A DNA stretch of 32,000 nucleotides from Candidatus Saccharimonadota bacterium (GTDB taxonomy: Archaea; Micrarchaeota; Micrarchaeia; Micrarchaeales; Micrarchaeaceae). A program made the translations under genes and the position numbers. The notes below the pieces were generated by a model, which saw nothing but the letters and a program-made list of their open reading frames with translations, made no database searches and was not told the DNA's origin. The first letter of the stretch is position 1. Each line of letters begins with the position of its first letter. The stretch is taken from NCBI GenBank assembly GCA_963705375.1, contig OY970071.1:90001-122000 (forward strand), given 5' to 3'. Below are positions 66 to 32,000 of this stretch, in pieces.

Positions 66-1919
66 ATGTCTATGAAACAATACGCAGTGCTGCTCACAGT
101 CGCGCTGGCGATAGTGGCTGCAGGTCTCTTGATCCTCTCTGATACGCTGCATACTGCAACATTCATTGTTCAACTTACTGATCCGCCGATAGTCCCTACA
201 GGCACACAGGCATTGCTTGTGGCGTATTCCGGCGTGGCGCTGCACACGGCAGGTGCTTCGAACTCGACAGGCTTCGTAAGCGTCCCTGCTTCTGGAGTTC
301 TTAACTTGATGAGCCTGACCAACATAACGCAGACAATTGCGATCCTGCACACAAAGATCAATGCGAGCTTCGACAGTGTGCGGCTTAACCTGACAAACGC
401 CAGCATCACAATAAGCAACGAAACCTATAACGTGACGCTACTCCAAAAAACCTTGCGGGTGCGGCTGCTCAACAGGACCAATAGCAGCACAGGTGGGGCT
501 GTTGTCGACCTGACCCCTACGATAATACAGATCTACACTGGCAACCAAACTCTGTTTGCTATGGCTCCATCCGTTAGGGCCGTTGCGATAGGTAAGGGCC
601 TGGTAAACGGGACGTCTGCGCGTATAGGCGCATCACAAAAGATCAGGAACGAAACCCTTGCCTTGATAGAGATGATAAGGCCCAATATAACAGTGACTGG
701 CGCTTACCTGAATGTCGCTGGCAACACAACACAATTCAATGTCACAGTTAGAAACAACGTAGGAAAGCCTGTAGAGCTTAATCACTTGGTCCTCTCCGGG
801 GCATTCGAGGCTCTGCTCAACTCAAGCGCATTAGACACAATCAACACTAGCGCCGTAGCTAGCGGCATAAATGCGGAGGATGTTGCAAGCGTTGCGCATG
901 CGATAGGCGTCCAGAGCATAACAGCAAATACTCTCAAAGAGATACGTGCCGAGATGGGCGGTGGTGCTTCTGGCGGTGCGTCTCCGGCTGTTACATCTAC
1001 TGTGCCTAAGATTGCACCTGCCATATCAATTGTGTCTGCAGTAGTGTCTGCCTACAACAACCATACATCTACATACGCAAATTCTAGGTTGTCCGCAACT
1101 GTAAACGCGATAGAGACTGAACTTCTGAATGCTACGGCATCAGGCGCACAGCAGACAATAGTTGGCTCTACCAGTTCGATCATCGGATCCAACATACTGT
1201 CGAACTCTGGAGGGATGAGTATTGCCTCCCAAGATGCACAGCACCTGCTCGGGACCGTTTCTGCAATAAGTACCCTGCTGGAAAACAGAAGCACGAACCT
1301 AACAGCATCTAACGCGCAGCAGATACTTGGCGCCATAGAGAACATAGGCACCATCTCGGCTGCAATGGCGACTAACGCCACGCAGGTCGAGAAGATCAGC
1401 GTTTTCGACACGATACTAAACATGACTGCGAACCCCGACGTCAGCGATAGCCAGCTGGCCGAGGTAACGGGCAGGCTCGCAAATATTACGGCACAAGTGC
1501 ACCTAACAAACACCACTCAGGCGTTGGCAATCGCAAGCAACCTCAACCTTACGCCGAGCGAGGCATCTACGACTGCACGGCTGCTTGTGCTCCATAACGA
1601 GCTTGCAGCGACAAGCATTTTCAGCAGAGAATATCATGGAGCGCTCAACTTCATCATAGCCGAGAACGGCACACTTTCATTGCCGTTCATGGTGCGGGCT
1701 GAGGGGCAGAAAGGCTATGCGCTTGCTGTCAATTCAAGTGTGACATTTGTGTTCAACGGCACGATGGCTTTTGGAACCCAGGCATCCGCCGCGCTTTCCA
1801 CAGAGCATCGGCCGATGCACCTTGGCACTACGGTGAGACCGATACCGAACGCCACATATGTGGTCAGAGTCACCGGAACGGATGGTGCGCTTGCTAGGAT
1901 GAATGTGACTGCAAGCTGA
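66..1919 (+). CDS. Secreted or N-terminally anchored surface glycoprotein candidate, possibly DUF4382-like at the N-terminus
   Basis: 617-aa ORF with N-terminal hydrophobic segment YAVLLTVALAIVAAGLLIL. I count about 31 N-x-S/T sequons. FIVQLTDPP...NLMSLTN...SVRLNLTNA resembles the start of DUF4382 beta-sandwich proteins (from memory, not searched). The central region is Ala/Ser/Thr/Asn-rich with repeated (T/S)ASxAQQ(T/I) units. Confidence 0.6.
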   Translation: MSMKQYAVLLTVALAIVAAGLLILSDTLHTATFIVQLTDPPIVPTGTQALLVAYSGVALHTAGASNSTGFVSVPASGVLNLMSLTNITQTIAILHTKINASFDSVRLNLTNASITISNETYNVTLLQKTLRVRLLNRTNSSTGGAVVDLTPTIIQIYTGNQTLFAMAPSVRAVAIGKGLVNGTSARIGASQKIRNETLALIEMIRPNITVTGAYLNVAGNTTQFNVTVRNNVGKPVELNHLVLSGAFEALLNSSALDTINTSAVASGINAEDVASVAHAIGVQSITANTLKEIRAEMGGGASGGASPAVTSTVPKIAPAISIVSAVVSAYNNHTSTYANSRLSATVNAIETELLNATASGAQQTIVGSTSSIIGSNILSNSGGMSIASQDAQHLLGTVSAISTLLENRSTNLTASNAQQILGAIENIGTISAAMATNATQVEKISVFDTILNMTANPDVSDSQLAEVTGRLANITAQVHLTNTTQALAIASNLNLTPSEASTTARLLVLHNELAATSIFSREYHGALNFIIAENGTLSLPFMVRAEGQKGYALAVNSSVTFVFNGTMAFGTQASAALSTEHRPMHLGTTVRPIPNATYVVRVTGTDGALARMNVTAS

Positions 1920-4548: not shown

Positions 4549-5412
4549 TCATTGAAGAGACAAGGCAACTATGCCAAGTGCTATCAGGGCTATGCCCAGC
4601 ATCTGTGTATTTTCAGGCCTCTCCTTTAAATACCATATGCCGAACAGAACTGGAAGTATTACGGATGCCGACGCAACCGGTGCAACTATTGCAGTAAAAT
4701 TAAGACTGACTCCCAGATTGTACACCATGCCTGCGATCAGATTTGCCAAAGATCCGATGAAAAGCAAAGCGTAGCCTTGCTTGCTGAACGAAGCCGACTT
4801 TGTTCTCTTAAATGACCCGTAAACGAAAATAAATGCAAGCGTAATCGCATTCAACAGGAAGAATGCGTCAAACCAGCCGATTCTGCGTACTAGTATGGTG
4901 TTCAAGAAGAAATACGCGCCCCACCCTATCATTGTTATCAACGCATATTTTGTATCTTCGTTAATTTTCCTAAGCGCGATTTTGCTGTTTTTCTTGTGCT
5001 TGTACGCGACCAATACGACTCCGATTACTATCAATAAGATCTCAATGATGCTCGACGTGTTTGGGTGTTCATTTAGGAATACGATGCTCAATATTACTGT
5101 TATCGCACTCCATCCATTCGCGATTGAAGCCACTGAAGATACATTTCCTACCTCAAACCCTTTTGCAAATGCGACAAAGGCCACGAATGATATCGTGCCC
5201 ATTGCAAATGCCAATAGTATGTCGTATGCGTTTATGTTTTTTGAGCTGAAAAAGAAGAATGCAGGCACCACTGACAGCGCGGTGATCATCAGGAACAACA
5301 TCAGCGAAGCCCTTACATACCCGTATTTCTTGGATGCGAAGGCCAACACTGTGTTGTCCAGTCCATAGCCGAGCAGTGCAGCTACACCAAAAAGTATTCC
5401 TGAAAAATACAT
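4549..5412 (-). CDS. EamA/DMT-superfamily transporter
   Basis: About 10 hydrophobic helices in a two-fold arrangement. TATA-like TTTATAAG (complement of 5434-5441) is centred about 26 nt upstream of ATG 5412, suggesting a leaderless start. The track ORF extends to a TTG at 5487. Confidence 0.65.
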   Translation of the reverse strand: MYFSGILFGVAALLGYGLDNTVLAFASKKYGYVRASLMLFLMITALSVVPAFFFFSSKNINAYDILLAFAMGTISFVAFVAFAKGFEVGNVSSVASIANGWSAITVILSIVFLNEHPNTSSIIEILLIVIGVVLVAYKHKKNSKIALRKINEDTKYALITMIGWGAYFFLNTILVRRIGWFDAFFLLNAITLAFIFVYGSFKRTKSASFSKQGYALLFIGSLANLIAGMVYNLGVSLNFTAIVAPVASASVILPVLFGIWYLKERPENTQMLGIALIALGIVALSLQ

Positions 5413-5584
5413 GCTCGTATTGTTGTTGCAAGGCTTATAAACACAGAAGAATTCTCCAAACGAATTAGACATGCGGTCAAAATGCAAACTCTAAAACGCA
5501 TTCTCTTTTGAAAGAATCAAAAACAGTATTGGCTTGGCATTACAAAAGGATTAAAATCTTAGTTGACAATGACGCACGATCATT

Positions 5585-6196
5585 ATGGCAAAGAAAGTGA
5601 ATCCTGCAACGTATTTGTTCCTGCTCGCGATGGCATTGCCAGTAATTATGTTCTTGTTCATCAATGTGGGTATTAACAGTGCGTTTAGCCTTCTAAGTAT
5701 TGATCGGCAGGTTTCTGTTTCATCCTCTTTATATTTTATCGCTCTTGGGTTTAGCTTCGCAGCCTTCTTACTTTCGGTCTTCCTGCGCAAACGCTTATTC
5801 ATCAAAGGTGAGATTCCTGCAAATATCGCTGTGTTCTTAGGAGAGCTATTGATTTTCCCGTTTCTTCTCGTCTTTCCGCCTTCTTATCTGGGAAACAGCG
5901 CCAATGTCCTTGTGAGTCTGGATGTCGGCATAATCATTACAGCGAGCATAACGGTCATTATTGTGTCTGTGTTTAAGCCAAAAGAGTTTCCAGTGAAAGA
6001 TGCATTCTCCATTTATTTTGCCGCTGTAGGTTTCACTATATTCGTGGCGATCTGGTCCATACTGGCTTTCGCCTATTCTGATTACCTTGCTGCTGCACTG
6101 AGCCACTTTGCAGCATTCACTCTGTTCGTGTCCACGATCTATACCTTCCAACTGGCTGCTTATAGGGATAAGATCAACATACGCGAGGTTATGTGA
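5585..6196 (+). CDS. Polytopic membrane protein of unknown function (about 6 TM)
   Basis: 203-aa ORF that is almost entirely hydrophobic helices. No family motif recognised. Confidence 0.5.
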   Translation: MAKKVNPATYLFLLAMALPVIMFLFINVGINSAFSLLSIDRQVSVSSSLYFIALGFSFAAFLLSVFLRKRLFIKGEIPANIAVFLGELLIFPFLLVFPPSYLGNSANVLVSLDVGIIITASITVIIVSVFKPKEFPVKDAFSIYFAAVGFTIFVAIWSILAFAYSDYLAAALSHFAAFTLFVSTIYTFQLAAYRDKINIREVM

Positions 6197-6365
6197 TAAA
6201 ATGCCGGCAGCTTTTGCGGATGCGGCGGTTTAATAGTATGTGCGCATTTGATGCACAAACAGATTACTCTCAAGTCGCTTGATTATGTGTTACAAGAGCT
6301 TCTACTCTTTAAAGTATTTTTTATTTTTAAGGCCATTATTTATACTTTTTACATCTTATAGTATC

Positions 6366-6911
6366 GTGACAGAAGAATTGGTGGATATCCTAGACGAGAA
6401 TGGCAAGGAAGTAGACATCATCAAGACCAAGAGCGAAGCGCACTCTCAAGGCTTGTGGCATGGTGCCATACACATATGGATCTACAACTCAAAAGGGGAA
6501 ATACTGCTTCAGAAGCGTTCAATGGCAAAGAGCACTATGCCTGGCCTGTGGGATATCTCTGTTGCCGGACATTTATCTGCAGGAGAGCGCCCCAAAAATG
6601 CGGCATTGCGGGAATTGCACGAAGAACTTGGAGTCCGGGCAAAACCTGAAGAGCTAAAGGAAGTGGCGAGTCTCAGAGTGGACTTCAGCGATTCGAAGCA
6701 GAATTACCATAACAAAGAGTTTGTTCACATCTACCTGTACAAGCTTGACTCGCTTCCATCAAAGCTCCAGGAAGAGGAAGTGGCCGAAGTCAAATTTGTC
6801 ACTATCGACAAGTTCGAGAAAGAGCTCGCGGACCCAAAGACTGTTGGGAAGTATGCTCCTTGGGATTATTCTGACACGCTAAAAATAGTCAGGAAGTCGA
6901 TCAAAGCATAG
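6366..6911 (+). CDS. Nudix hydrolase (IDI-like / COG1443-type layout)
   Basis: Nudix box GHLSAGERPKNAALRELHEELGV. The first 29 codons of the track ORF (6279-6365) are AT-rich promoter-like sequence. GTG 6366 (VTEELVDILDENG) matches the typical N-terminus. Confidence 0.8.
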   Translation: MTEELVDILDENGKEVDIIKTKSEAHSQGLWHGAIHIWIYNSKGEILLQKRSMAKSTMPGLWDISVAGHLSAGERPKNAALRELHEELGVRAKPEELKEVASLRVDFSDSKQNYHNKEFVHIYLYKLDSLPSKLQEEEVAEVKFVTIDKFEKELADPKTVGKYAPWDYSDTLKIVRKSIKA

Positions 6912-6959
6912 CAGCATATTCGATGCTAAATCTGGCTTGGTCTTTACATAGGTGGCAGA

Positions 6960-7235
6960 CTATTCCAGCCGCTTGATTATGTGGTAGCCAAACTGGGTCT
7001 TCACGATGCCGGATACCTGGCCTTTCTGCAACGCGAACGCCGCTTTCTCGAACTCCCTTACCATAACTCCGTGGCCAAAGACTCCCAGGTCTCCTCCGCG
7101 CTTTCCAGAACCGTCAAGAGAGTATTCCATTGCCAGCTTGCTGAAGCTCTCGCCCTTTGCCAGCTTGTCAAGCACCTCCTTCGCCTTCTCTTCGCTCTTG
7201 ACCAGTATGTGTGCGCATCTTATCTTGTCTGCCAT
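6960..7235 (-). CDS. Single-domain parvulin-type peptidyl-prolyl cis-trans isomerase
   Basis: KIRCAHILV...[23 protein letters not shown]...[16 protein letters not shown] is the PpiC/parvulin signature. Size and N-terminus resemble the thaumarchaeal single-domain parvulins (PinA/NmPin). ATG 7235 is preferred over 7253. Confidence 0.85.
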
Positions 7236-7321
7236 ATAACCACTGCGTGCCATTCATGTGCAAATAAGCTTAATAGCATAACGTTTGTAATGCTGGTACT
7301 GCAGGAGTGGGACGTGAGAGT

Positions 7322-12521: not shown

Positions 12522-13811
12522 ATGTCTTTCCTAGTTGACAGTAGTTATAAAAGTTTAGGTACCCCTTCTGCTGATATTATAGTATTTTTGGATGGTATTT
12601 CAATGTTTTTTGCAAGACGCAAACCTGAAGAAGTGCCAGTCGGCAATCTGAATCAATTCCTTAACCTGCAGTTTGAGAAGAAGCTAGGTCAGTTCGGATC
12701 CCGTTCTCAAACGATTGTAGACGATCTTGGCAAGGCGGTGCTAAGATTTGGCGATGCTTGTGATACGTTCGAGAAACTCGAAGCAGAACCAAATATCGAA
12801 GGACGCTATGCTGTAAACATCAATTTTATCAAAACGCAGAAGGGCAGGTATGTCGGCAGCCTGAAAAACATTCTCAAAGCAAAACCCGAAGACATGCCCG
12901 CTGTCAACACGTACGAGACGTATGCGAATATACTGGCAAGTTCTGATGATACTGTTAAGAAGATATTGGAAGCCAACGCTAACTTCAAGACTGTACTATA
13001 CTGCTATTCGAACCATCTCTGGGACTTTAAGAGTTTGTTTTCTGAAATCGAAAGGCATACTGCGGCATTGAAAAGCGAACTTGATAGCAAATCGGATGAA
13101 TTCTCAAAGTATGCTGCAGTGCGCAGTCACATTTCGATGTTAAACAGGTATTGTGAAGAACTACTCGCGCTGAAAAAAAGTGCAGAGGTCCTTAAGGCAA
13201 ATCCGAACACACAAGAAGGCGTGTCGCGTATCGACGGCACAGACGCGCACAGAAAACTTTACGATAAAATGGCAGAGTTGGCGCGATTGCGCAAAGAAAA
13301 CACCAATCTTCATAGTAGGATAACCTCGCTCGTCCTTCCTTTGGAAAGGGCTTCAAAAAAACTCGACTATCTCTCTGCACACAAAGCAAAACTTCACAAA
13401 TTTGTAGAAGATCCGATAAGCACGATAAATAACGAAGCAGAATACAAAGAGTTCAATGCTCTTGTCCAAGAGCTGGACAAAAACGTACGTGAAGGCCGCA
13501 TAGATCTTAAGAACAGTGATAAGGTGAGCGAAATTGTGTCGCTGCTCTTGGGTTCTGACTTTTATTCTATGGTACGCTCTTTCAGGTCAAACCTAAAGGC
13601 AGAGTTGGAAGCCAAAACGGATATTGAGGCTTTGGAAAAGAATCTAACTGCAATCAAGAACGAAAAGACTGCATCTGAGAAGTGTGCGCAGGAAATGGCC
13701 GGCATAGAAGAAAAAGTTGTTGAGGCAGAAAAAGGCAAAGACGCTGAGAAAAAAGCGATAGAAAAGCTATTTGAAGACGATTATGGCGTTCTTATTGTCA
13801 TAACCAATTAG
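12522..13811 (+). CDS. Coiled-coil protein of unknown function
   Basis: 429-aa ORF with long heptad-like Lys/Glu/Leu-rich stretches in the C-terminal two thirds. No enzymatic motif or TM segment. ATG 12603 (MFFARRKPEE) is an alternative start. Confidence 0.55.
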   Translation: MSFLVDSSYKSLGTPSADIIVFLDGISMFFARRKPEEVPVGNLNQFLNLQFEKKLGQFGSRSQTIVDDLGKAVLRFGDACDTFEKLEAEPNIEGRYAVNINFIKTQKGRYVGSLKNILKAKPEDMPAVNTYETYANILASSDDTVKKILEANANFKTVLYCYSNHLWDFKSLFSEIERHTAALKSELDSKSDEFSKYAAVRSHISMLNRYCEELLALKKSAEVLKANPNTQEGVSRIDGTDAHRKLYDKMAELARLRKENTNLHSRITSLVLPLERASKKLDYLSAHKAKLHKFVEDPISTINNEAEYKEFNALVQELDKNVREGRIDLKNSDKVSEIVSLLLGSDFYSMVRSFRSNLKAELEAKTDIEALEKNLTAIKNEKTASEKCAQEMAGIEEKVVEAEKGKDAEKKAIEKLFEDDYGVLIVITN

Positions 13812-13864
13812 TCTTAAATACTCAACAGTCTTAGACATATCGGAATCTGCTTCTACATTCCTAT

Positions 13865-14884
13865 TTGGTATTTAGAACTGGTGCGAGCTTGGACGTAATC
13901 AACGTGAAAGGCCTAACAAAGGACTTTGGTACGCTTACGGCTGTGGACTCTGTCTCTTTTCAGGTAAAAGACGGGGAAGTGTTCGGACTTCTAGGTCCGA
14001 ATGGCGCAGGAAAGACTACGACAATAAAGATGCTCATAACGCTCCTTACCCCCACTTCTGGCGATGCCACTGTTTCAGGCTGGGATATCCGGAAAGACAA
14101 AAGAAAAGTGAGGGACAGCATTGGAGTGGTGTTTCAGGACCCTTCTCTAGATGACGAGCTTACTGGCAGGGAGAATCTCGCGTTCCATGCCATACTTTAC
14201 AGGATGAACAAGAGCGAGATGGAGAAGAAAATACAGAGCGTGCTGAAGCTTGTTGAACTCGAAGACAAAGCGGACATTCTTGTAAAGAATTATTCCGGTG
14301 GCATGAAAAGAAGGCTCGAGATAGGCCGCGGCCTGATGCACGAGCCAAAGGTGCTCTTCCTTGACGAGCCGACCATAGGGTTGGATCCGCAGACAAGACG
14401 CCACATGTGGGACTATATACAGAAGCTGAACACACAGCACAGAACAACGCTCATTCTCACCACTCACTACATAGAAGAAGCAGATTACTTGTGCAGAAGA
14501 GTCGCGTTTATAGACCACGGCAAGATAGTTGCGCTTGACACGCCTGGTGCACTGAAGGATAAAATGGGCGGAGACATAATAACGCTCAGAATAAAACAAA
14601 ATGTTGGCAACGAAGTCAAGAAGTTCAAGAGCATTTCATGGGTTAAGGCCGTATCCGTGCACGATGATGTTATAGCGCTAACAGTTGAGAAAGGGAACGA
14701 ACGCATCTCAGAGATTGTGATGTTTGCCAAGAAACACGGCATAACAATAAGTTCTGTTGACCTGCGCAAGCCAAGCCTTGAAGACGTGTTCATAAAATAT
14801 ACGGGAAAGACAATAAGGGAAGAGGAGGGGAGCTGGCGTGATAGGTTAAGGACCCGTCATGCTGCGTGGACTGGGAGGCGATGA
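13865..14884 (+). CDS. ABC transporter ATP-binding protein (ABC-2/DrrA-like exporter type)
   Basis: Walker A GPNGAGKTT, Q-loop VFQD, signature YSGGMKRRLE, Walker B LFLDEPT, H-loop TTHY. The start is uncertain: TTG 13865, or TTG 13889 preceded by GGTG. Confidence 0.9.
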   Translation: MVFRTGASLDVINVKGLTKDFGTLTAVDSVSFQVKDGEVFGLLGPNGAGKTTTIKMLITLLTPTSGDATVSGWDIRKDKRKVRDSIGVVFQDPSLDDELTGRENLAFHAILYRMNKSEMEKKIQSVLKLVELEDKADILVKNYSGGMKRRLEIGRGLMHEPKVLFLDEPTIGLDPQTRRHMWDYIQKLNTQHRTTLILTTHYIEEADYLCRRVAFIDHGKIVALDTPGALKDKMGGDIITLRIKQNVGNEVKKFKSISWVKAVSVHDDVIALTVEKGNERISEIVMFAKKHGITISSVDLRKPSLEDVFIKYTGKTIREEEGSWRDRLRTRHAAWTGRR

Positions 14885-15648
14885 CAATGGATGCTAATGC
14901 AGTTTATGTTTTGTGGCTTAGAGAAATGAAAAGGTTCACCCGGGCAAAGTCGAGGGTCATAGGTATCCTGGTGATGCCTTTGTTTTTCCTGCTCGGTCTT
15001 GGACTGGGTCTTGGAGGTCTTATAACCGCACAAGTGAGCGGAGGCAGCTACCTTCAGTTCATAGTGCCCGGGATAATCGGCATGTCTCTGATGTCTGCAG
15101 CGATCGCATCAGGTTTTTCGGTTATATGGGACCGTGAATTTGGATTTTTGAAAGAGATAATGGTGACTCCAAATTCCATGGCTTCAATCGCATTTGGCAG
15201 GATGCTTGGAGGCACCACCACTGCGATGCTTTCTGCTACAATGGTGACCGTGGTCTCTGTTCTGGTGGGCTTCCACATACACTACTCTCTAATGCTTCTT
15301 ATTGCGATACTTTTCATGGTGCTGATAGCCATGACCTTCATAAGCCTCGGATTAATACTCGCATCTGTAATAACCGACCTTCAGGGCTTTGGAATGATAA
15401 CAAGCTTCTTCACCATGCCGCTGCTATTTCTTTCAAATGGCCTATTTCCATTGAGCCGCTTCCCGCGGATTGTGCAGTACATCGCCTATTTCAATCCACT
15501 CGCATACGGCATAGACGGAATAAGAGGCACGCTTGGAGGGGCTTCTGCCATACCCATTCCTGTAGATCTTGCGGCGATGGTGCTTGTTGTGGCAATTATG
15601 GCATCGATAGCGACTTATGCGTTCAGCAAAAGCGAAACTGGCGTGTAA
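14881..15648 (+). CDS. ABC-2 type transporter permease
   Basis: Six hydrophobic helices and an N-terminal LREMKRFTRAKSR motif typical of ABC-2 permeases. GGAGG lies 3 nt upstream, and an ATGA start/stop overlap (14881-14884) links it to the ATPase gene. Confidence 0.8.
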   Translation: MTMDANAVYVLWLREMKRFTRAKSRVIGILVMPLFFLLGLGLGLGGLITAQVSGGSYLQFIVPGIIGMSLMSAAIASGFSVIWDREFGFLKEIMVTPNSMASIAFGRMLGGTTTAMLSATMVTVVSVLVGFHIHYSLMLLIAILFMVLIAMTFISLGLILASVITDLQGFGMITSFFTMPLLFLSNGLFPLSRFPRIVQYIAYFNPLAYGIDGIRGTLGGASAIPIPVDLAAMVLVVAIMASIATYAFSKSETGV

Positions 15649-15702: not shown

Positions 15703-16764
15703 TCACACTCTGCTGTAAGTCTGCAATTCCTCACTAAAGTCTTCCAGGTTGCCTATTATGTCTTGCTGCTCCTCTAAGATGCCTTTTCTAATATGGACAT
15801 CTGAAGGCATCTTGGCAGACAGATATAGTGCACGTTTTAATGGATCCTGTTTGTCATCAGCAGTGGACTCGACAGCCACATCCATGCCTATTTTACACGC
15901 CTCCCAACGTCGCCTTACACGTTCTAGGTAATCTAAATATCTTTCATTATCTCTACTGTCTAAATCCTTATTATCTATTATGCTCTTCAGCAGTAGGCTT
16001 ACTGCCATTCTGCCTGCCGTCTTTCCAATATCGTACGACATTGACGCTGCCAATATCGGTTCAAAATTCTCCTGTTCGCCTGGCCTATCGGGCAGATAAT
16101 ATTGTGCATCTATTATCCTATCTTCAGATGCAGTCCTCGCTTCAAAGTTCGCAGCATCGTATATCATATCTATTATGTCTTGTAGTTTTTTTATTATGTC
16201 ATCTTTTACTGCTGTGTTTTTTGAATACAAAGCTTCAGCGGCTTTGGATATTATCTCGTAGGGCATATAGTCCAGCATTTCTTCCGGAACTGTAGTCTTT
16301 CCGTCATTTTTTGCTGCGTCAATGGCTTTACGTTTGCCCTCTCCCCAGCTGTCCTCTCCATAGAATATCTTTATCCCCTTTAGATACGTCCTTACCTTCG
16401 GGAGGTCCTTGCTCAATATGTACTTGCCTGGTTGCAAGTAGTCCGCATCTGACACATCCTCAAATATGAACTTTCTTAACGTCTTGATAAAATGCAGTTG
16501 GAACTCCGGCAGCAGCTTTCGGGCAGTAGATACGTCTTCTAATTTTCGCAATTCATCCAACGCGTTTGTCAACTTTTTTTCAAAACTGATGTACCTGTCC
16601 TCGGATTCTGCAGATTCCGTCTTTGGTGTTGCGAAAGCCTTGTCTTCTATTCTTCTCAAATCATCCAAAGCTTTTGCCAAACGTTCTTCGTCGATTTTCT
16701 GTTCATCTGGTTCTGCAGCATCTTTCTTAGCCTTGGCCTCCTTAGGTTTAGAACTACCTTTCAT
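15703..16764 (-). CDS. ORFan, soluble helical protein with an N-terminal duplicated LxxALD(D/E)LR(R/K)(I/L)ED motif
   Basis: 353-aa ORF with protein-like composition. It has its own TATA (complement of 16795-16804) about 36 nt upstream of the ATG. No known family recognised. Confidence 0.6.
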   Translation of the reverse strand: MKGSSKPKEAKAKKDAAEPDEQKIDEERLAKALDDLRRIEDKAFATPKTESAESEDRYISFEKKLTNALDELRKLEDVSTARKLLPEFQLHFIKTLRKFIFEDVSDADYLQPGKYILSKDLPKVRTYLKGIKIFYGEDSWGEGKRKAIDAAKNDGKTTVPEEMLDYMPYEIISKAAEALYSKNTAVKDDIIKKLQDIIDMIYDAANFEARTASEDRIIDAQYYLPDRPGEQENFEPILAASMSYDIGKTAGRMAVSLLLKSIIDNKDLDSRDNERYLDYLERVRRRWEACKIGMDVAVESTADDKQDPLKRALYLSAKMPSDVHIRKGILEEQQDIIGNLEDFSEELQTYSRV

Positions 16765-16873: not shown

Positions 16874-16906
16874 TTTTAGGTGAATAGTCAGATACGCGTG
16901 AATGCT

Positions 16907-17551
16907 ATGTTCGGGCTGTCTGGAACTGGAATGCCTAACGATCAAATAAGGGCGAACCTAGAGATCATACTGAAAAAAGACGCCCAATTGACGGCAAATG
17001 CGCTAAAATCCTTGGATGATGGAAAAGCGGATAGGGCAGTTATCCGACAAACTGCAATAACAATGATTCAGGATCTTGCACGAGAAGGGGATCTAGTCAA
17101 AATAGCCGATTCTATCGATACGCTAGAAAAGTACGGGCTGGTTGACTACTCTGATATTGAGAAGATGATAAATGTTCGTCAAGTGGTTAAAGGCCTGGAA
17201 AAGCTTGCAGAAACATATATGCGTACTGGTGAATTATTGGCTTCTGCATCGGTCTTTTTGCACGTTGTAGAGTTCTTTGGGTTAAATAGGCAAGATATAT
17301 CCGACTCGCTGGTACAGAAGGTCATGGAGCTTATCGCAGCAGATGTTGCCGGAAAATTGAATTTGTGGAACCGGCCAACAGTTGACGAGCTCAACAGCAA
17401 CAAACTTCTGGATCACGCCAAAGACATGATATCTGCTCTCAAGACAACAACAGGCAGGGACGGGGAGCGGCTGTTCAAGGCGCTTATCAACAGGGGTCTG
17501 AGCGAAGACCAAGCGGACAGGGTGTGCTCGCTTCTCGGTTTCAGCCTATAA
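16907..17551 (+). CDS. ORFan family member A (paralog of 17647..18588)
   Basis: Shares VRQVVKGLEKLA and SLVQKVMELIAADV blocks with the next gene. TATA GTATATATG at 16865-16873, and SD GTGAAT 3 nt before ATG 16907. The track start is GTG 16880. Confidence 0.6.
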   Translation: MFGLSGTGMPNDQIRANLEIILKKDAQLTANALKSLDDGKADRAVIRQTAITMIQDLAREGDLVKIADSIDTLEKYGLVDYSDIEKMINVRQVVKGLEKLAETYMRTGELLASASVFLHVVEFFGLNRQDISDSLVQKVMELIAADVAGKLNLWNRPTVDELNSNKLLDHAKDMISALKTTTGRDGERLFKALINRGLSEDQADRVCSLLGFSL

Positions 17552-17579
17552 TCCTTCCAGTTGCGTGCTGCTTGATTTT

Positions 17580-17601
17580 CCGATTCCAAGTGCGAAATCG
17601 G
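17580..17601 (+). terminator. Small hairpin between paralog genes A and B
   Basis: CCGATT-N10-AATCGG preceded by GATTTT. It lies between the stop of A (17551) and the TATA of B (17622). Confidence 0.25.
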
Positions 17602-17621
17602 CTCTCTCTATTGAGGCAACG

Positions 17622-17629
17622 TATAAATA
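17622..17629 (+). promoter_or_regulatory. TATA box for 17647..18588
   Basis: TATAAATA is centred about 22 nt upstream of ATG 17647, giving a near-leaderless transcript. Confidence 0.4.
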
Positions 17630-17646
17630 TTCCTTCATTTAGATGT

Positions 17647-18588
17647 ATGTTGGGTGCTACTGTGCAAGCCGCAAGAAGAACTTCGAGCACGCACGTAAAT
17701 GAAGTGTCAGCAGAAGTCACAGCAAACGCAATTGTTGGTGCGATACTGGATAGAAGTATCGATTTCTCTGCCCGACGTGACAAGCTCGTGAGGCTTGGAG
17801 TGGTGGACGAGGCCGGAGCCGTGCAGCCTATGCAACGTCAGGTTGCCAAATTATGCCGCGAAAAGGCCGCCGATGCCATCGGAACGCTTGTAAGTGCCAT
17901 GTATGGTGAATTTCTGAACCACAGCGGTAAATATGGCCAAAGTGACAAAGAAGCTATATATGAAAGAATAAACAAAGCAGTGGATGTGGTTAATGATTTC
18001 AAAGAATACGGGATAATGACCAAGACGAATGAGCGGTTGCTCTTCGGAAGAAGGCCGTCTGAAGGAATGCCATCCATCAGAGACAACATAATGACTTGCA
18101 TTCCTGCGATAGTGATCCGATGGAAATATCCCGAAGTTGCAGACATAGTTAATCTCATGTCTAAGAGTTTTGGGCTGTCAACTCGTGAAGCGCATGCTGA
18201 GGTGAATCGTCAAGTGGTTGTCGGGCTCAAAAAGCTCGCAGACGTTGTAGATCGCGATATAGGTGTAAGTCTAAAACCAAAGTCAGTTAGCGAGAGCTTT
18301 TTCACAAACTTTGCTTCCATTGTAAGTACTCTTGAGATAAACAGAGAAGGGCTTGGTGATGAACTGGTTCAAGCTGTGATGGAGCTTATTGCAGATGATT
18401 TTAGGACCAACCGTAGTTCGTTTCGTGAGACAATTGAGCGCCTTTCGGTCCTGAAACTTACAGCTGACGATATTGACAACCGATTACCTGGAGTGCTTAG
18501 TGACTGCCTTGGGTCAGAAGAACGGGCAAAACAACTGCTTGACGAAATTAAGCGCAGTCTTCAGCCACGTCACTCTGCCCAGCGTTGA
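17647..18588 (+). CDS. ORFan family member B (paralog of 16907..17551, longer)
   Basis: VNRQVVVGLKKLA and ELVQAVMELIADDF blocks match member A. TATAAATA at 17622-17629 lies just upstream of ATG 17647. The track ORF 5' extension (17524-17646) overlaps gene A and reads as non-protein-like sequence. Confidence 0.6.
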   Translation: MLGATVQAARRTSSTHVNEVSAEVTANAIVGAILDRSIDFSARRDKLVRLGVVDEAGAVQPMQRQVAKLCREKAADAIGTLVSAMYGEFLNHSGKYGQSDKEAIYERINKAVDVVNDFKEYGIMTKTNERLLFGRRPSEGMPSIRDNIMTCIPAIVIRWKYPEVADIVNLMSKSFGLSTREAHAEVNRQVVVGLKKLADVVDRDIGVSLKPKSVSESFFTNFASIVSTLEINREGLGDELVQAVMELIADDFRTNRSSFRETIERLSVLKLTADDIDNRLPGVLSDCLGSEERAKQLLDEIKRSLQPRHSAQR

Positions 18589-18590
18589 TT

Positions 18591-18920
18591 TTATCTTTTC
18601 CGCTTGTTCATCTGCTTGATGACAGCGTCAATTTTTGCGTTGAGTTCCGCCATATCCTTCTTAGAGGCGAACGGAGCCTTTTTCGCCATGCGGTTGATCT
18701 GCACCTTAACGCTCTTTGCGTACTTGACGCTCTGCGCCTGGTACTGCCTGACCGTAGCGCGCACCATCCGCTCACCCTCCTTGTGGCTGATTTTTTCCTT
18801 CTTTTCTAAGATGTTTGCTGCTTCTTTCAGCGCACTGGCAGTTATGTATGCGACACCCATGCCGAATTCGAGTCCTTTCTTTACCATTTTATCCATGTCA
18901 TCCATGTTTTCACCAATCAT
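18591..18920 (-). CDS. Phasin-like (COG3937-type) small helical protein
   Basis: The pattern VKKGLEFGMGVA...LEKKEKISHKEGERMV...FASKKDMAELNAKIDAV matches the KKGL-x-G-x-G...KKGEIS-x-EEG...ATKxDLxxL layout of PHA-regulator phasin-like proteins. It lies 6 nt downstream of the UbiB gene on the same strand. Confidence 0.55.
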   Translation of the reverse strand: MIGENMDDMDKMVKKGLEFGMGVAYITASALKEAANILEKKEKISHKEGERMVRATVRQYQAQSVKYAKSVKVQINRMAKKAPFASKKDMAELNAKIDAVIKQMNKRKR

Positions 18921-18926
18921 AATCGC

Positions 18927-20600
18927 TCATTCTAGCAGGATCTTGCCGGCAAGCCACACGCCCAACACGGCGCTTGCGATGAAGCCCACTACACTTAGTA
19001 GTTTGCTTGCACTGACAACAACAGAGGATCCAACAATCAGCGCAGAGATTATCATTGCAAGAGATAGCTTGTCGCTGATCCTGTCAAGATCTGCGGAGAA
19101 TACTTCAAGGTCTCTGTGTGCAAGCTCTATCTTGAGCTTGCCCTCTTCCATCTTTCCGAGAAACTTCCGGATAGATGCGGGCAGTGTGCGGGCTATGTAT
19201 TCGAAATCGAGCAGGTCATCCTTAAGAATATCTCCAAGGTTTTGTGTGCCCCAGCTGCTTGGCAACAGTTTCTTTGCGTAAGGCTCGAACTCTTCTGCAA
19301 TGTTGAAGCTCGGATCCAACTCAGTGCCGACCCCTTCCAGTATGAGCAAGGCACGGACCAGTTCTGCCATTTCTCTTGGCCTGTTGAATTCGTACTTGCC
19401 AAGTACTGCCAAAAGATCCGAAAGCATCTGCCCCATTTTTACATCGACTACGCGCATGGTGTAATACGTATCCAGCACATCGGTGACGTCTGCCTTGAAA
19501 GAGTCCAAGTCTGCGGTTTCTCCGATCATTCCGGTCCTGACCATGTGAGCCACTAGCCCATTAACGTTGTTCTCTACGGCAAACAGAGCAAGTCTGAGCA
19601 GCCTCTCGGCCATCTCCTTATCTACTGTGCCAACCCTGCCGAAATCGAGAAGGCCTATGCTGTTGTGCTCAAGGATCATGATGTTTCCGGGATGCATGTC
19701 TCCATGGTAAAAGCCATCAACCAGTACCATCTTGAAGAACATTTTTGCGCATCTGCGAGCGATAAGCTTGTTGTCGTACCTTTTGATTCTTGTGCCAATG
19801 ATTTCCGAGAGCTTGACGCCTTTCAGCTCTTCCATGACCATTACGCGCTGTGTGCACATGTCCTCATACACTGCCGGCACGTATACGCTCTTGTCAGACT
19901 CGAAGTTGTTCTTGAGCCTGATCGTATTCCTGCTTTCTCTAATGAAATCGAGCTCCTTCATTATGGAACGGTCGAACTCGTTTACAAGGTAAATAGGATC
20001 GTATTGTTTTGATTCGGGTATGTGCCTGTCGATAAGTGTGGCAAGATAGTGCATAATGCGCAAGTCTTCCTTTATGGTTTCCTCTATCTTCGGCCTCTGC
20101 ACTTTGACGACCACCTTGGCACCGTTCTTAAGCGTGGCCTTATGGATCTGACACATCGATGCCGAGGCAATCGGCTCTTCCTGGAACGAAGTAAAAAGTT
20201 CTTTGATGGGTTTACCCAGTTCCTTCACTATGATTTCGCGTGCCTGACTTGTGGGGAAAGGTCGCATCCTGTCCTGTAGCTTAGATAGTTCTGCGGCATA
20301 GTCTGCACCCACTATGTCTCCACGTGTACTCAGGAGCTGTCCGAACTTTACAAACGTGGGCCCGAGTTCTTCAAACATTAGCCTGAGGCGCTCTTGCGGT
20401 GACATGTACGCCATTTCCGGCCGTGCCTTTGCTGCAAACCTGATGGGTAGTTTTTCTCCTATGCGTATACGGTCGGCAAACTGGCCAAGTTGGAATTTGA
20501 CCAGTAGGTCAAGTATATGCGAGATTCTATCTACGTCTTGCCTGCTCTGTGATGTTCTGAAGATATCCACCAAAACCCACCGTAATGATATAGTTATCAA
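18927..20600 (-). CDS. ABC1/UbiB-family atypical protein kinase with C-terminal TM helices
   Basis: FEELGPTFVKFGQLLSTRGD, PIASASMCQIHKATL, VVVKVQRP and HGDMHPGNI motifs, with a C-terminal hydrophobic pair. The start is uncertain: TTG 20600, or GTG 20570 preceded by GGTGG. Confidence 0.85.
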   Translation of the reverse strand: MITISLRWVLVDIFRTSQSRQDVDRISHILDLLVKFQLGQFADRIRIGEKLPIRFAAKARPEMAYMSPQERLRLMFEELGPTFVKFGQLLSTRGDIVGADYAAELSKLQDRMRPFPTSQAREIIVKELGKPIKELFTSFQEEPIASASMCQIHKATLKNGAKVVVKVQRPKIEETIKEDLRIMHYLATLIDRHIPESKQYDPIYLVNEFDRSIMKELDFIRESRNTIRLKNNFESDKSVYVPAVYEDMCTQRVMVMEELKGVKLSEIIGTRIKRYDNKLIARRCAKMFFKMVLVDGFYHGDMHPGNIMILEHNSIGLLDFGRVGTVDKEMAERLLRLALFAVENNVNGLVAHMVRTGMIGETADLDSFKADVTDVLDTYYTMRVVDVKMGQMLSDLLAVLGKYEFNRPREMAELVRALLILEGVGTELDPSFNIAEEFEPYAKKLLPSSWGTQNLGDILKDDLLDFEYIARTLPASIRKFLGKMEEGKLKIELAHRDLEVFSADLDRISDKLSLAMIISALIVGSSVVVSASKLLSVVGFIASAVLGVWLAGKILLE

Positions 20601-29337: not shown

Positions 29338-29793
29338 CTAAACGCTCCAATTTCTTCCTTCTTCTACAAACTCGCTGTAGGTTATGTTCTTTTTGATGTT
29401 CTCGATCGCAAACCGCACATACGGGACTGTGTTTTCAGGCAAATTGTCAATCGAAAACCACTGCATGTCGTCGCATTTCTGAGGCTCAGCGTTTTTTGGT
29501 TCGTACTTCCATACACTTGCCTTGAAAAAGAAATCAATTCGCTCCACTTCGCTCAACCTATGCATAACGTGCACAAACTCCAGGTCGTTGACACTTACTT
29601 CAGATCCTGCCTCCTCGATGGCTTCCCTGACTGCCGCATTTCTTACCGTTTCATTGCTCTCGACATGTCCTGCAACTAGACTGTACTTGCCATCGCCCCA
29701 TCCTGTATTGAACCTCCTTAGCATGAGTAGCTTGCCGTTTTTGATGAACAACACATGTACTGCCGATACGAATCTACCTACTCTTACGGCCAT
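29338..29793 (-). CDS. Nudix hydrolase
   Basis: Nudix box GHVESNETVRNAAVREAIEEAGS. Confidence 0.8.
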   Translation of the reverse strand: MAVRVGRFVSAVHVLFIKNGKLLMLRRFNTGWGDGKYSLVAGHVESNETVRNAAVREAIEEAGSEVSVNDLEFVHVMHRLSEVERIDFFFKASVWKYEPKNAEPQKCDDMQWFSIDNLPENTVPYVRFAIENIKKNITYSEFVEEGRNWSV

Positions 29794-29916: not shown

Positions 29917-30312
29917 ATGCCTGTGATAGACAAGCTCGCATGGATATGCGTAAAGGACAACAGGATACTGTGTGCAAGGTCCAGGGGCAAAGACGCCTTT
30001 TATGTCCCTGGAGGCAAAAGAGAGACTGGTGAGAGTAACGCGCAGGCGTTGATACGCGAAGTCAAAGAAGAACTGAGCGTGAACCTTATACCAGATACTT
30101 TGCATTTTGAGGAGATCTTCCAGGCGCAAGCGCACGGCAAGCCCCTAGGCACAATCGTCAAAATGACGTGCTACACCGCAGATTTCCGCGGAGAGATCAA
30201 GCCGGACTCTGAGATAGAGGCATTGAAATGGATGTCTTATGCGGACAAGGACATAATGCCACCTGTCGACAAACTTATCTTCGACTGGCTTCACAAGAAA
30301 GGCAGCCTATAG
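29917..30312 (+). CDS. Nudix hydrolase (MutT-like)
   Basis: Nudix box GGKRETGESNAQALIREVKEELSV. Confidence 0.8.
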   Translation: MPVIDKLAWICVKDNRILCARSRGKDAFYVPGGKRETGESNAQALIREVKEELSVNLIPDTLHFEEIFQAQAHGKPLGTIVKMTCYTADFRGEIKPDSEIEALKWMSYADKDIMPPVDKLIFDWLHKKGSL

Positions 30313-31792: not shown

Positions 31793-32000
31793 ATGTTCGG
31801 CCAAGCCACTGAGACAAAAAGCAAAGAAGCTGAAAACGCCCAGTTCAATCAACTGCTCGGCAGATTAACCGCAGACAGAGCAGACCAGGCCTGCGAGCTT
31901 CGAGAGGCTTTGAAAAGGACTCCAGCAAATGCCTTGCAAGTGCTTGAATTTGTGTTCATAAACATACCCGGGGTGCTAGGTTCTAAATCGAAGTGGGAAG
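31793..32000 (+). CDS. 5' part of an ORF running off the window, a possible third member of the 16907/17647 family
   Basis: Open frame from ATG 31793 to the window end (MFGQATETKSKEAENAQFNQLLGRLTADRADQACELREALKRTPANALQVLEFVF...). SD AAGTGAT has the same aligned spacing as other genes, and a TATA lies at 31743-31753. It is not in the ORF track because it has no stop. Confidence 0.4.
   Translation, partial: MFGQATETKSKEAENAQFNQLLGRLTADRADQACELREALKRTPANALQVLEFVFINIPGVLGSKSKWE

Follow-up and report, generated by a model that had tools for sequence, protein, structure and literature searches.

Unannotated genes make up an unusually large part of DPANN archaeal genomes, and the families that these genes form are small and found in few genomes (PMC6393860). 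Archaeal orphan proteins mostly give sub-threshold matches to known fold types, and few of them represent truly novel folds (PMC13607799). Here we analysed two adjacent orphan genes, which we call A and B, in a stretch of 32,000 nucleotides (nt) with the GTDB lineage Micrarchaeota (contig OY970071.1, positions 90,001 to 122,000; the window). Like the DPANN 'dark matter' families of Makarova, Wolf & Koonin (2019; PMC6393860), A and B are unannotated, occur in few genomes and lie among other unannotated genes; unlike those families, which have a median protein length of 93 amino acids (PMC6393860), they encode proteins of 214 and 313 amino acids. A Pfam match is also lacking for about half of the window's larger genes, and orphan status is therefore the norm in this genome. 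We find that A and B are tandem paralogues, that both are real protein-coding genes, and that they constitute a small new family of a familiar sort, orphan helical proteins expanded by tandem duplication. We are highly confident that they are a paralogous, lineage-restricted pair in a small DPANN-type (probably Micrarchaeota-related) archaeal genome and not the undescribed system for which an original prediction had proposed them.

A mechanical list of open reading frames for the window contained two adjoining plus-strand frames, 16880-17551 and 17524-18588. To place the genes we used gene calls on an independent contig (L001), which is a separate Logan assembly of the same locus and differs from the window by 2 mismatches in 13.5 kb.

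16907-17551, plus strand: gene A, 214 amino acids, starting MFGLSG
17647-18588, plus strand: gene B, 313 amino acids, starting MLGATV

The adjacent same-strand pair of the original prediction is real, and the start it gave at 16880 is merely the first in-frame GTG. Gene A starts at the ATG at 16907 according to the gene call, and its orthologue begins at the same MFGLSG methionine. B had been described as about 100 amino acids longer than A, and the measured difference is 99. The orthologue of A (P0003) shares 73% identity with A and is encoded on a 1-kb metagenome contig (L002) of the Joint Genome Institute (JGI). The two genes align without gaps over 214 codons, with proportions of non-synonymous and synonymous differences of 0.14 (pN) and 0.77 (pS; saturated), respectively, which indicates strong purifying selection on A. 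As A combines this demonstrable selection with a fairly confident fold prediction (see below), it is no spurious reading frame. When the likelihood of codon usage was compared across all six frames, the annotated frame scored best for A and for B.

The relatedness of A and B, which the original prediction had read from shared motifs, proved to be significant. BLASTP aligned the two proteins at 32% identity over 130 amino acids (E = 5e-10). In the shuffled pairwise alignment that had been suggested as a check, the pair lay clearly above its controls, with a Smith-Waterman score of 116 against a mean of 36.3 (s.d. 5.5) for 500 shuffles, none of which scored as well (z = 14.5). A hidden Markov model (HMM) built from A and its orthologue, with B left out, matched B at 1e-10. 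Significant similarity is confined to a core, and the cores alone gave z = 16.8. The core and its motifs map as follows.

17042-17407, plus strand: core of A, residues 46-167, from the BLASTP and tblastn alignment
18076-18459, plus strand: core of B, residues 144-271, from the same alignment
17168-17212, plus strand: helix motif 1 of A, INVRQVVKGLEKLAE, from the alignment, a DNA direct repeat and codon comparison
18199-18243, plus strand: helix motif 1 of B, EVNRQVVVGLKKLAD, the counterpart of INVRQVVKGLEKLAE
17303-17347, plus strand: helix motif 2 of A, DSLVQKVMELIAADV, from the alignment and a DNA direct repeat
18358-18402, plus strand: helix motif 2 of B, DELVQAVMELIADDF, the counterpart of DSLVQKVMELIAADV

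The shared core, of about 125 residues, centres on two helices with strong conservation, RQVVxGLxKLA and LVQxVMELIAxD. At the DNA level, motif 1 corresponds to a direct repeat (D2) with 81% identity over 36 nt between A and B, and motif 2 to a second (D1) with 74% identity over 39 nt, which contains the shared 11-mer ATGGAGCTTAT. Both motif pairs and the 11-mer had been reported correctly, except that motif 2 had been started one codon late; its true starts are 17303 and 18358. The columns that are invariant in A, its orthologue and B include the polar residues R91, Q92, K99, D133, Q137, E141 and D146, and these residues, which lie on the two conserved helices, may provide a shared binding or oligomerisation surface. 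We also note a peculiarity of codon use within the motifs. The RQVV codons are identical in A (17177-17188) and B (18208-18219), CGT CAA GTG GTT, and the A orthologue encodes the same stretch as CGC CAG GTG GCC. Over the motif regions, nucleotide identity was 28/39 and 31/45 between A and B, as against 22/39 and 26/45 between the orthologue and B. Judged from these codons, the identity of A and B in the motifs could reflect common codon bias or small gene-conversion tracts.

Several further likenesses that had been proposed were not upheld. The N-terminal resemblance, M-(F/L)-G followed by TANA, was at background level (residues 1-60 of A against 1-110 of B, z = 0.7); a shared 4-mer arose in 108 of 5,000 shuffles, and the A orthologue reads STSDAL at this position. 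The C-terminal SE(D/E)(Q/R)A helix was not significant by itself (z = 0.2). Relative to A, B carries about 95 additional residues as a helical extension at the N terminus. The proposed internal duplication of B found no backing, with z = 1.1 for residues 1-110 against 111-313 and a score of -1.6 bits for the supposed second RQV element.

The family formed by A and B is very small. The earlier view that neither protein belongs to an assignable known family was borne out by the lack of significant matches in Pfam, NCBIfam, PADLOC, PHROGs and PDB sequences. The family profile retrieved 7rmx alone from the PDB sequences; this helical protein was designed de novo, and the match (39 residues, E = 4.7e-6) probably reflects composition. 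In 5.8 billion protein clusters, searches with single sequences and with the profile yielded three members, namely A, B and P0003. As a query, B found itself alone, both in these clusters and when phmmer was run exhaustively over 1.84 billion representatives. Scans with the family alignment of GTDB genomes (one per species), JGI metagenome contigs and IMG/VR found nothing, and tblastn produced no homologues, either for A in phage records or for B in plasmid records.

We then asked whether A and B are kept together in related genomes. Beyond B, on the minus strand, lies a gene pair in which the gene for a UbiB/ABC1-type kinase is immediately followed by one for a small basic protein of 109 amino acids (window 18591-20570). 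This pair was kept in every relative with a long enough contig and served as the anchor for locating five further loci, or six when L002 is included. The relatives' contigs are few and short, and presence or absence refers here to the locus at the anchor. The UbiB proteins of the window and of L003, a contig from a Micrarchaeota metagenome-assembled genome, are 62% identical, and the assignment to this taxon draws on that one genome. The 109-amino-acid protein has an isoelectric point (pI) of 10 and no Pfam or NCBIfam match and is 44-75% identical across loci; we take it to resemble phasin-like (COG3937) proteins, a likeness that no profile confirmed. The anchor pair lies at these positions in the relatives.

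L003, 1912-3915: UbiB and 109-amino-acid genes
L005, 3-821: UbiB and 109-amino-acid genes
L006, 5511-7488: UbiB and 109-amino-acid genes
L008, 763-2901: UbiB and 109-amino-acid genes

The slot that follows the anchor was occupied as follows.

Window, 16907-18588: B, then A
L002, 31-675: A alone
L005, 970-1822: an unrelated orphan of 148 amino acids
L003, 3923-7305: three unrelated orphans of 262, 545 and 276 amino acids
L006, 7596-7982: a hemerythrin-domain gene
L008, 2961-6948: a membrane protein and others

Among the six relative loci, A was present in L002 alone and B in none. L002 is colinear with the window, at 72% nucleotide identity in A and 74% in the 109-amino-acid gene, and has 137 nt in place of B. 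None of the slot genes of L003, L005, L006 and L008 matched the A/B profile. Five relatives carry neither A nor B beside the anchor. Because the genes after the conserved anchor differ in each relative, A and B occupy a variable slot, which is a local hotspot of gene turnover, and B either is dispensable or occurs in this lineage alone.

These observations bear directly on the undescribed multi-component system of one repeated helical module that the original prediction had assembled from A, B, the gene at 15703-16764 and a probable third copy at 31793. A and B are indeed adjoining paralogues, and the 15703 gene is divergent, shares an intergenic region of 142 nt and likewise encodes a helical, charged orphan. 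However, Smith-Waterman shuffles, HMM searches and hhalign showed no similarity of the 15703 and 31793 products to A or B. For the 15703 product, z was -0.2 against A and 0.9 against B, with an HMM E value of at least 0.34 and an hhalign probability of 1%. The 31793 gene was recovered at full length beyond the end of the window on another contig (L004, 2782-3339), which we reached through the neighbouring gene. Its complete product of 185 amino acids is unrelated to the pair, with z = 2.2 against A (in a non-colinear alignment), z = -1.3 against B and an HMM E value of 0.34. As the proposed extra members are unrelated, B is missing from the sole A-bearing relative, the whole set is absent from the anchor in five relatives, internal module duplication is not significant and the surroundings are of a housekeeping kind, the step to a system is unsupported. 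We consider the multi-gene reading largely refuted and highly improbable.

The claim that A and B are transcribed separately survived in part. Upstream of B we found an archaeal promoter-like element.

17622-17629, plus strand: TATAAATA, resembling an archaeal TATA box, 17 nt upstream of the B ATG

Read from the sequence, this element would make the transcript leaderless or nearly so and is consistent with a putative promoter of B's own. The intergenic hairpin that had been put forward alongside it was no better than chance (z = +1.07, with folding as good or better in 180 of 200 shuffles). A scan for sigma-70 and terminator patterns remained at background level, and such patterns do not apply to archaea. 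A and B probably each use their own promoter and would not form a dedicated multi-gene system.

The genes around A and B are mostly those of ordinary cell function. Annotated genes of the window encode a DRG-type GTPase, an EamA transporter, glutamine synthetase, MsrA, a pyruvoyl-dependent arginine decarboxylase, an ABC-2 transporter, the UbiB/ABC1 kinase, a hemerythrin-domain protein, an HhH-GPD glycosylase and NUDIX and TPR proteins, and between them lie many genes without a Pfam match. The pyruvoyl-type decarboxylase, like the TATA-type elements upstream of genes, is in keeping with an archaeon. The immediate neighbours of the pair are the ABC-2 transporter, UbiB kinase and hemerythrin-domain genes. 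No integrase, transposase or other mobile-element marker and no toxin or nuclease was seen around A and B, PADLOC matched neither the pair nor its immediate neighbours, and Rfam and tRNA scans of the window found no RNA genes. Base composition at A and B showed no anomaly; with this and the lack of phage and plasmid matches, an origin in a mobile element was rejected. A and B have no kinship with the 109-amino-acid gene or with a gene of 146 amino acids; the family profile touches the 109-amino-acid homologues weakly and consistently (E values of 0.004-0.1), at a profile-profile probability of merely 3.5%.

Arrays of immunity genes typically consist of small helical proteins that are tandem paralogues, and A and B share several traits of the tandem immunity and antitoxin arrays in polymorphic toxin or defence loci: they are adjacent same-strand paralogues, small, soluble and helical, and show presence and absence variation. 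They might accordingly be accessory 'conflict' genes (immunity- or antitoxin-like, anti-defence or host-interaction genes) that diversify fast and vary between strains in a hypervariable slot, as the slot differs in every relative examined and B varies between close lineages. Unlike such arrays, A and B have no toxin or defence partner and no PADLOC or PHROG match, and they sit in the housekeeping neighbourhood described above, with unremarkable base composition. Selection on A is purifying and not diversifying, and neither protein has a secretion signal for host contact. We therefore regard a role in conflict as unlikely. A related and still less likely view makes A and B the tip of a very fast-evolving, Micrarchaeota-specific helical family that fills the slot. 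The slot orphans of L003 (262, 545 and 276 amino acids) and L005 (148 amino acids) would then be ultra-diverged or replaced counterparts, engaged in a lineage-specific interaction with a host, a virus or UbiB-associated lipid machinery under recurrent turnover. The L003 orphan of 276 amino acids (6475-7305, minus strand) carries, around residues 157-216, INRQIMNGLVKEIA, an element similar to the A/B signature (I/V)N(V)RQVVxGLxKLA. We examined this protein, with its INRQIMNGL motif, as a diverged homologue and rejected it; it is colinear with B, but the similarity is not significant (z = 2.8, hhalign probability 1%).

The history that we favour for the pair starts with an ancestral A-like gene that duplicated in tandem. 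One copy, B, would have gained its N-terminal helical extension and diverged much faster, as suggested by 32% identity to A compared with 73% between the A orthologues. Because the first value is so far below the second, either the duplication preceded the split from the sister (L002) lineage, which then lost B, or B is a rapidly evolving, lineage-specific copy. A variant of this history would have A alone functional and B a redundant duplicate under relaxed constraint, heading for loss. Along with the gap in identity, it draws on the lack of B in the nearest relative, on a weaker codon-usage signal (a frame margin of 0.038 for B, against 0.117 for A and 0.117-0.19 for A and the other genes) and on the low confidence of the structural model of B. 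Against it stand an intact frame of 313 codons that is the best of the six, the TATA-like element of B's own and two core helices that are still strongly conserved at the protein level. Decay of B appears improbable to us.

We modelled both proteins with AlphaFold2 and searched the models with Foldseek. A was predicted with a mean local confidence (pLDDT) of 79.8 and a predicted template modelling score (pTM) of 0.68, and has 12 helices of 7-21 residues that form about six helix pairs. The model of B is of low confidence (pLDDT 64.5). Both are all-helical, in agreement with the helical character originally proposed. No PDB or BFVD match reached E < 0.001. Across the two models the best match had E = 0.019, with template modelling (TM) scores of at most 0.41 and root-mean-square deviations of 8-15 Å, and the best BFVD match of the A model had E = 0.096. 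The top ranks were held by designed helical repeats, PPR/THA8, a mitoribosomal PPR protein, TPR (BamD), MIF4G and 14-3-3 structures. An ESCRT-III/Snf7 identity, suggested by the N-terminal MFG and by size, was rejected: there was no Pfam Snf7 match at E ≤ 1, the A model has 12 short helices and no long alpha1-alpha2 hairpin, and ESCRT-III structures were missing among the 50 best Foldseek matches listed.

Like the alpha-alpha repeat scaffolds found at these top ranks (designed DHR and PPR proteins such as 5cwb and 4ozs, THA8, BamD (2yhc), MIF4G and 14-3-3), A and B are all-helical, with short antiparallel helix pairs. They could on this basis be PPR/TPR-like alpha-solenoids that bind RNA, in the manner of PPR/THA8/MIF4G, or peptides, in the manner of TPR/14-3-3. 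The designed PPR protein 4ozs gave the highest Foldseek probability for both models (0.98 for A and 0.90 for B), it was accompanied by THA8, the mitoribosomal PPR protein, BamD, MIF4G and 14-3-3, and the A model resolves into its helix pairs. Yet every match had E ≥ 0.019, superposition on solved repeat proteins stayed short of a global TM score above 0.5, and no TPR, PPR or HEAT family matched A or B in Pfam even at E ≤ 1, or in NCBIfam. For regular helix-turn-helix units of about 34-40 residues the picture is mixed: the A model shows about six helix pairs, but no internal repeat was significant in the sequences (segment self-alignments, z ≤ 1.2), and hydrophobicity autocorrelation did not exceed that of shuffles for A or B. 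The pI of A is acidic, at 5.2 (6.9 for B), which speaks against RNA binding. Membership among the repeat scaffolds is thus not established, and we doubt that A and B are solenoids of this kind.

We found no catalytic, nucleotide-binding, membrane or secretion signature in either protein; the predicted lack of transmembrane segments holds, with maximal 19-residue Kyte-Doolittle windows of 1.43 (A) and 1.02 (B). Given this, and the weak likeness to helical repeats, A and B would most likely be non-enzymatic, cytoplasmic modules that bind or scaffold another macromolecule, although we hold this mechanism only tentatively. The reading as a whole, a restricted, helical scaffold-type protein A with a faster-diverged, dispensable tandem duplicate B, seems to us fairly probable. 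Several points weigh against it. The A-B relation itself amounts to just 44 bits, and relatives that score below about 35-45 bits are invisible at these database sizes, so the family may be wider than three members. The comparison of loci covers a few short contigs of relatives and not the remainder of those genomes, where A or B might lie. The AlphaFold alignment held 3 sequences and the B model is poor. The scaffold role draws on absent features and on a structural likeness that is not significant (E = 0.019, TM ≤ 0.41), and we detected no regular periodicity of repeats in the sequences.

If the favoured reading is correct, A and B are one more, comparatively clean, case from the DPANN pool of taxonomically restricted genes, and B offers a snapshot of a gene that arose by tandem duplication, diverged rapidly and then underwent lineage-specific loss. 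With A constrained and modelled and B a diverging duplicate, the pair is usable as a modest example for studying the growth and decay of orphan families where genomes are reduced. The analysis gave no sign of a new mechanism or of a system of a new kind. The pair would matter more if the slot beside the UbiB and 109-amino-acid genes held a fast-evolving interaction or conflict module.

Other orphan genes came to light at these loci. Continuing from window position 31793 on, the reverse complement of L004 (160-3339) holds five consecutive genes for products of 185, 164, 153, 228 and 223 amino acids. None of the five matches Pfam or is significantly similar to another of them or to A or B; this stretch is a small 'dark matter' islet. 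In L003, the UbiB gene is flanked by orphans of 274 (467-1291, minus strand) and 545 amino acids (4807-6444, minus strand) that are mutual paralogues (BLASTP 1.3e-6, 24% identity over 241 amino acids) and make up a second duplicated orphan family, unrelated to A and B. Within the window, the ATPase and permease genes of the ABC-2-type transporter are directly preceded, on their own strand, by a gene for a protein of 429 amino acids with no Pfam match (12522-15648, plus strand), and this protein may be a lineage-specific third component of the transporter operon. Three NUDIX hydrolase genes were found in the 32 kb (6279-6911, plus strand; 29338-29793, minus strand; 29917-30312, plus strand). 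The latter two form an adjacent divergent pair, and the first two are paralogous, with 32% identity over 87 amino acids.

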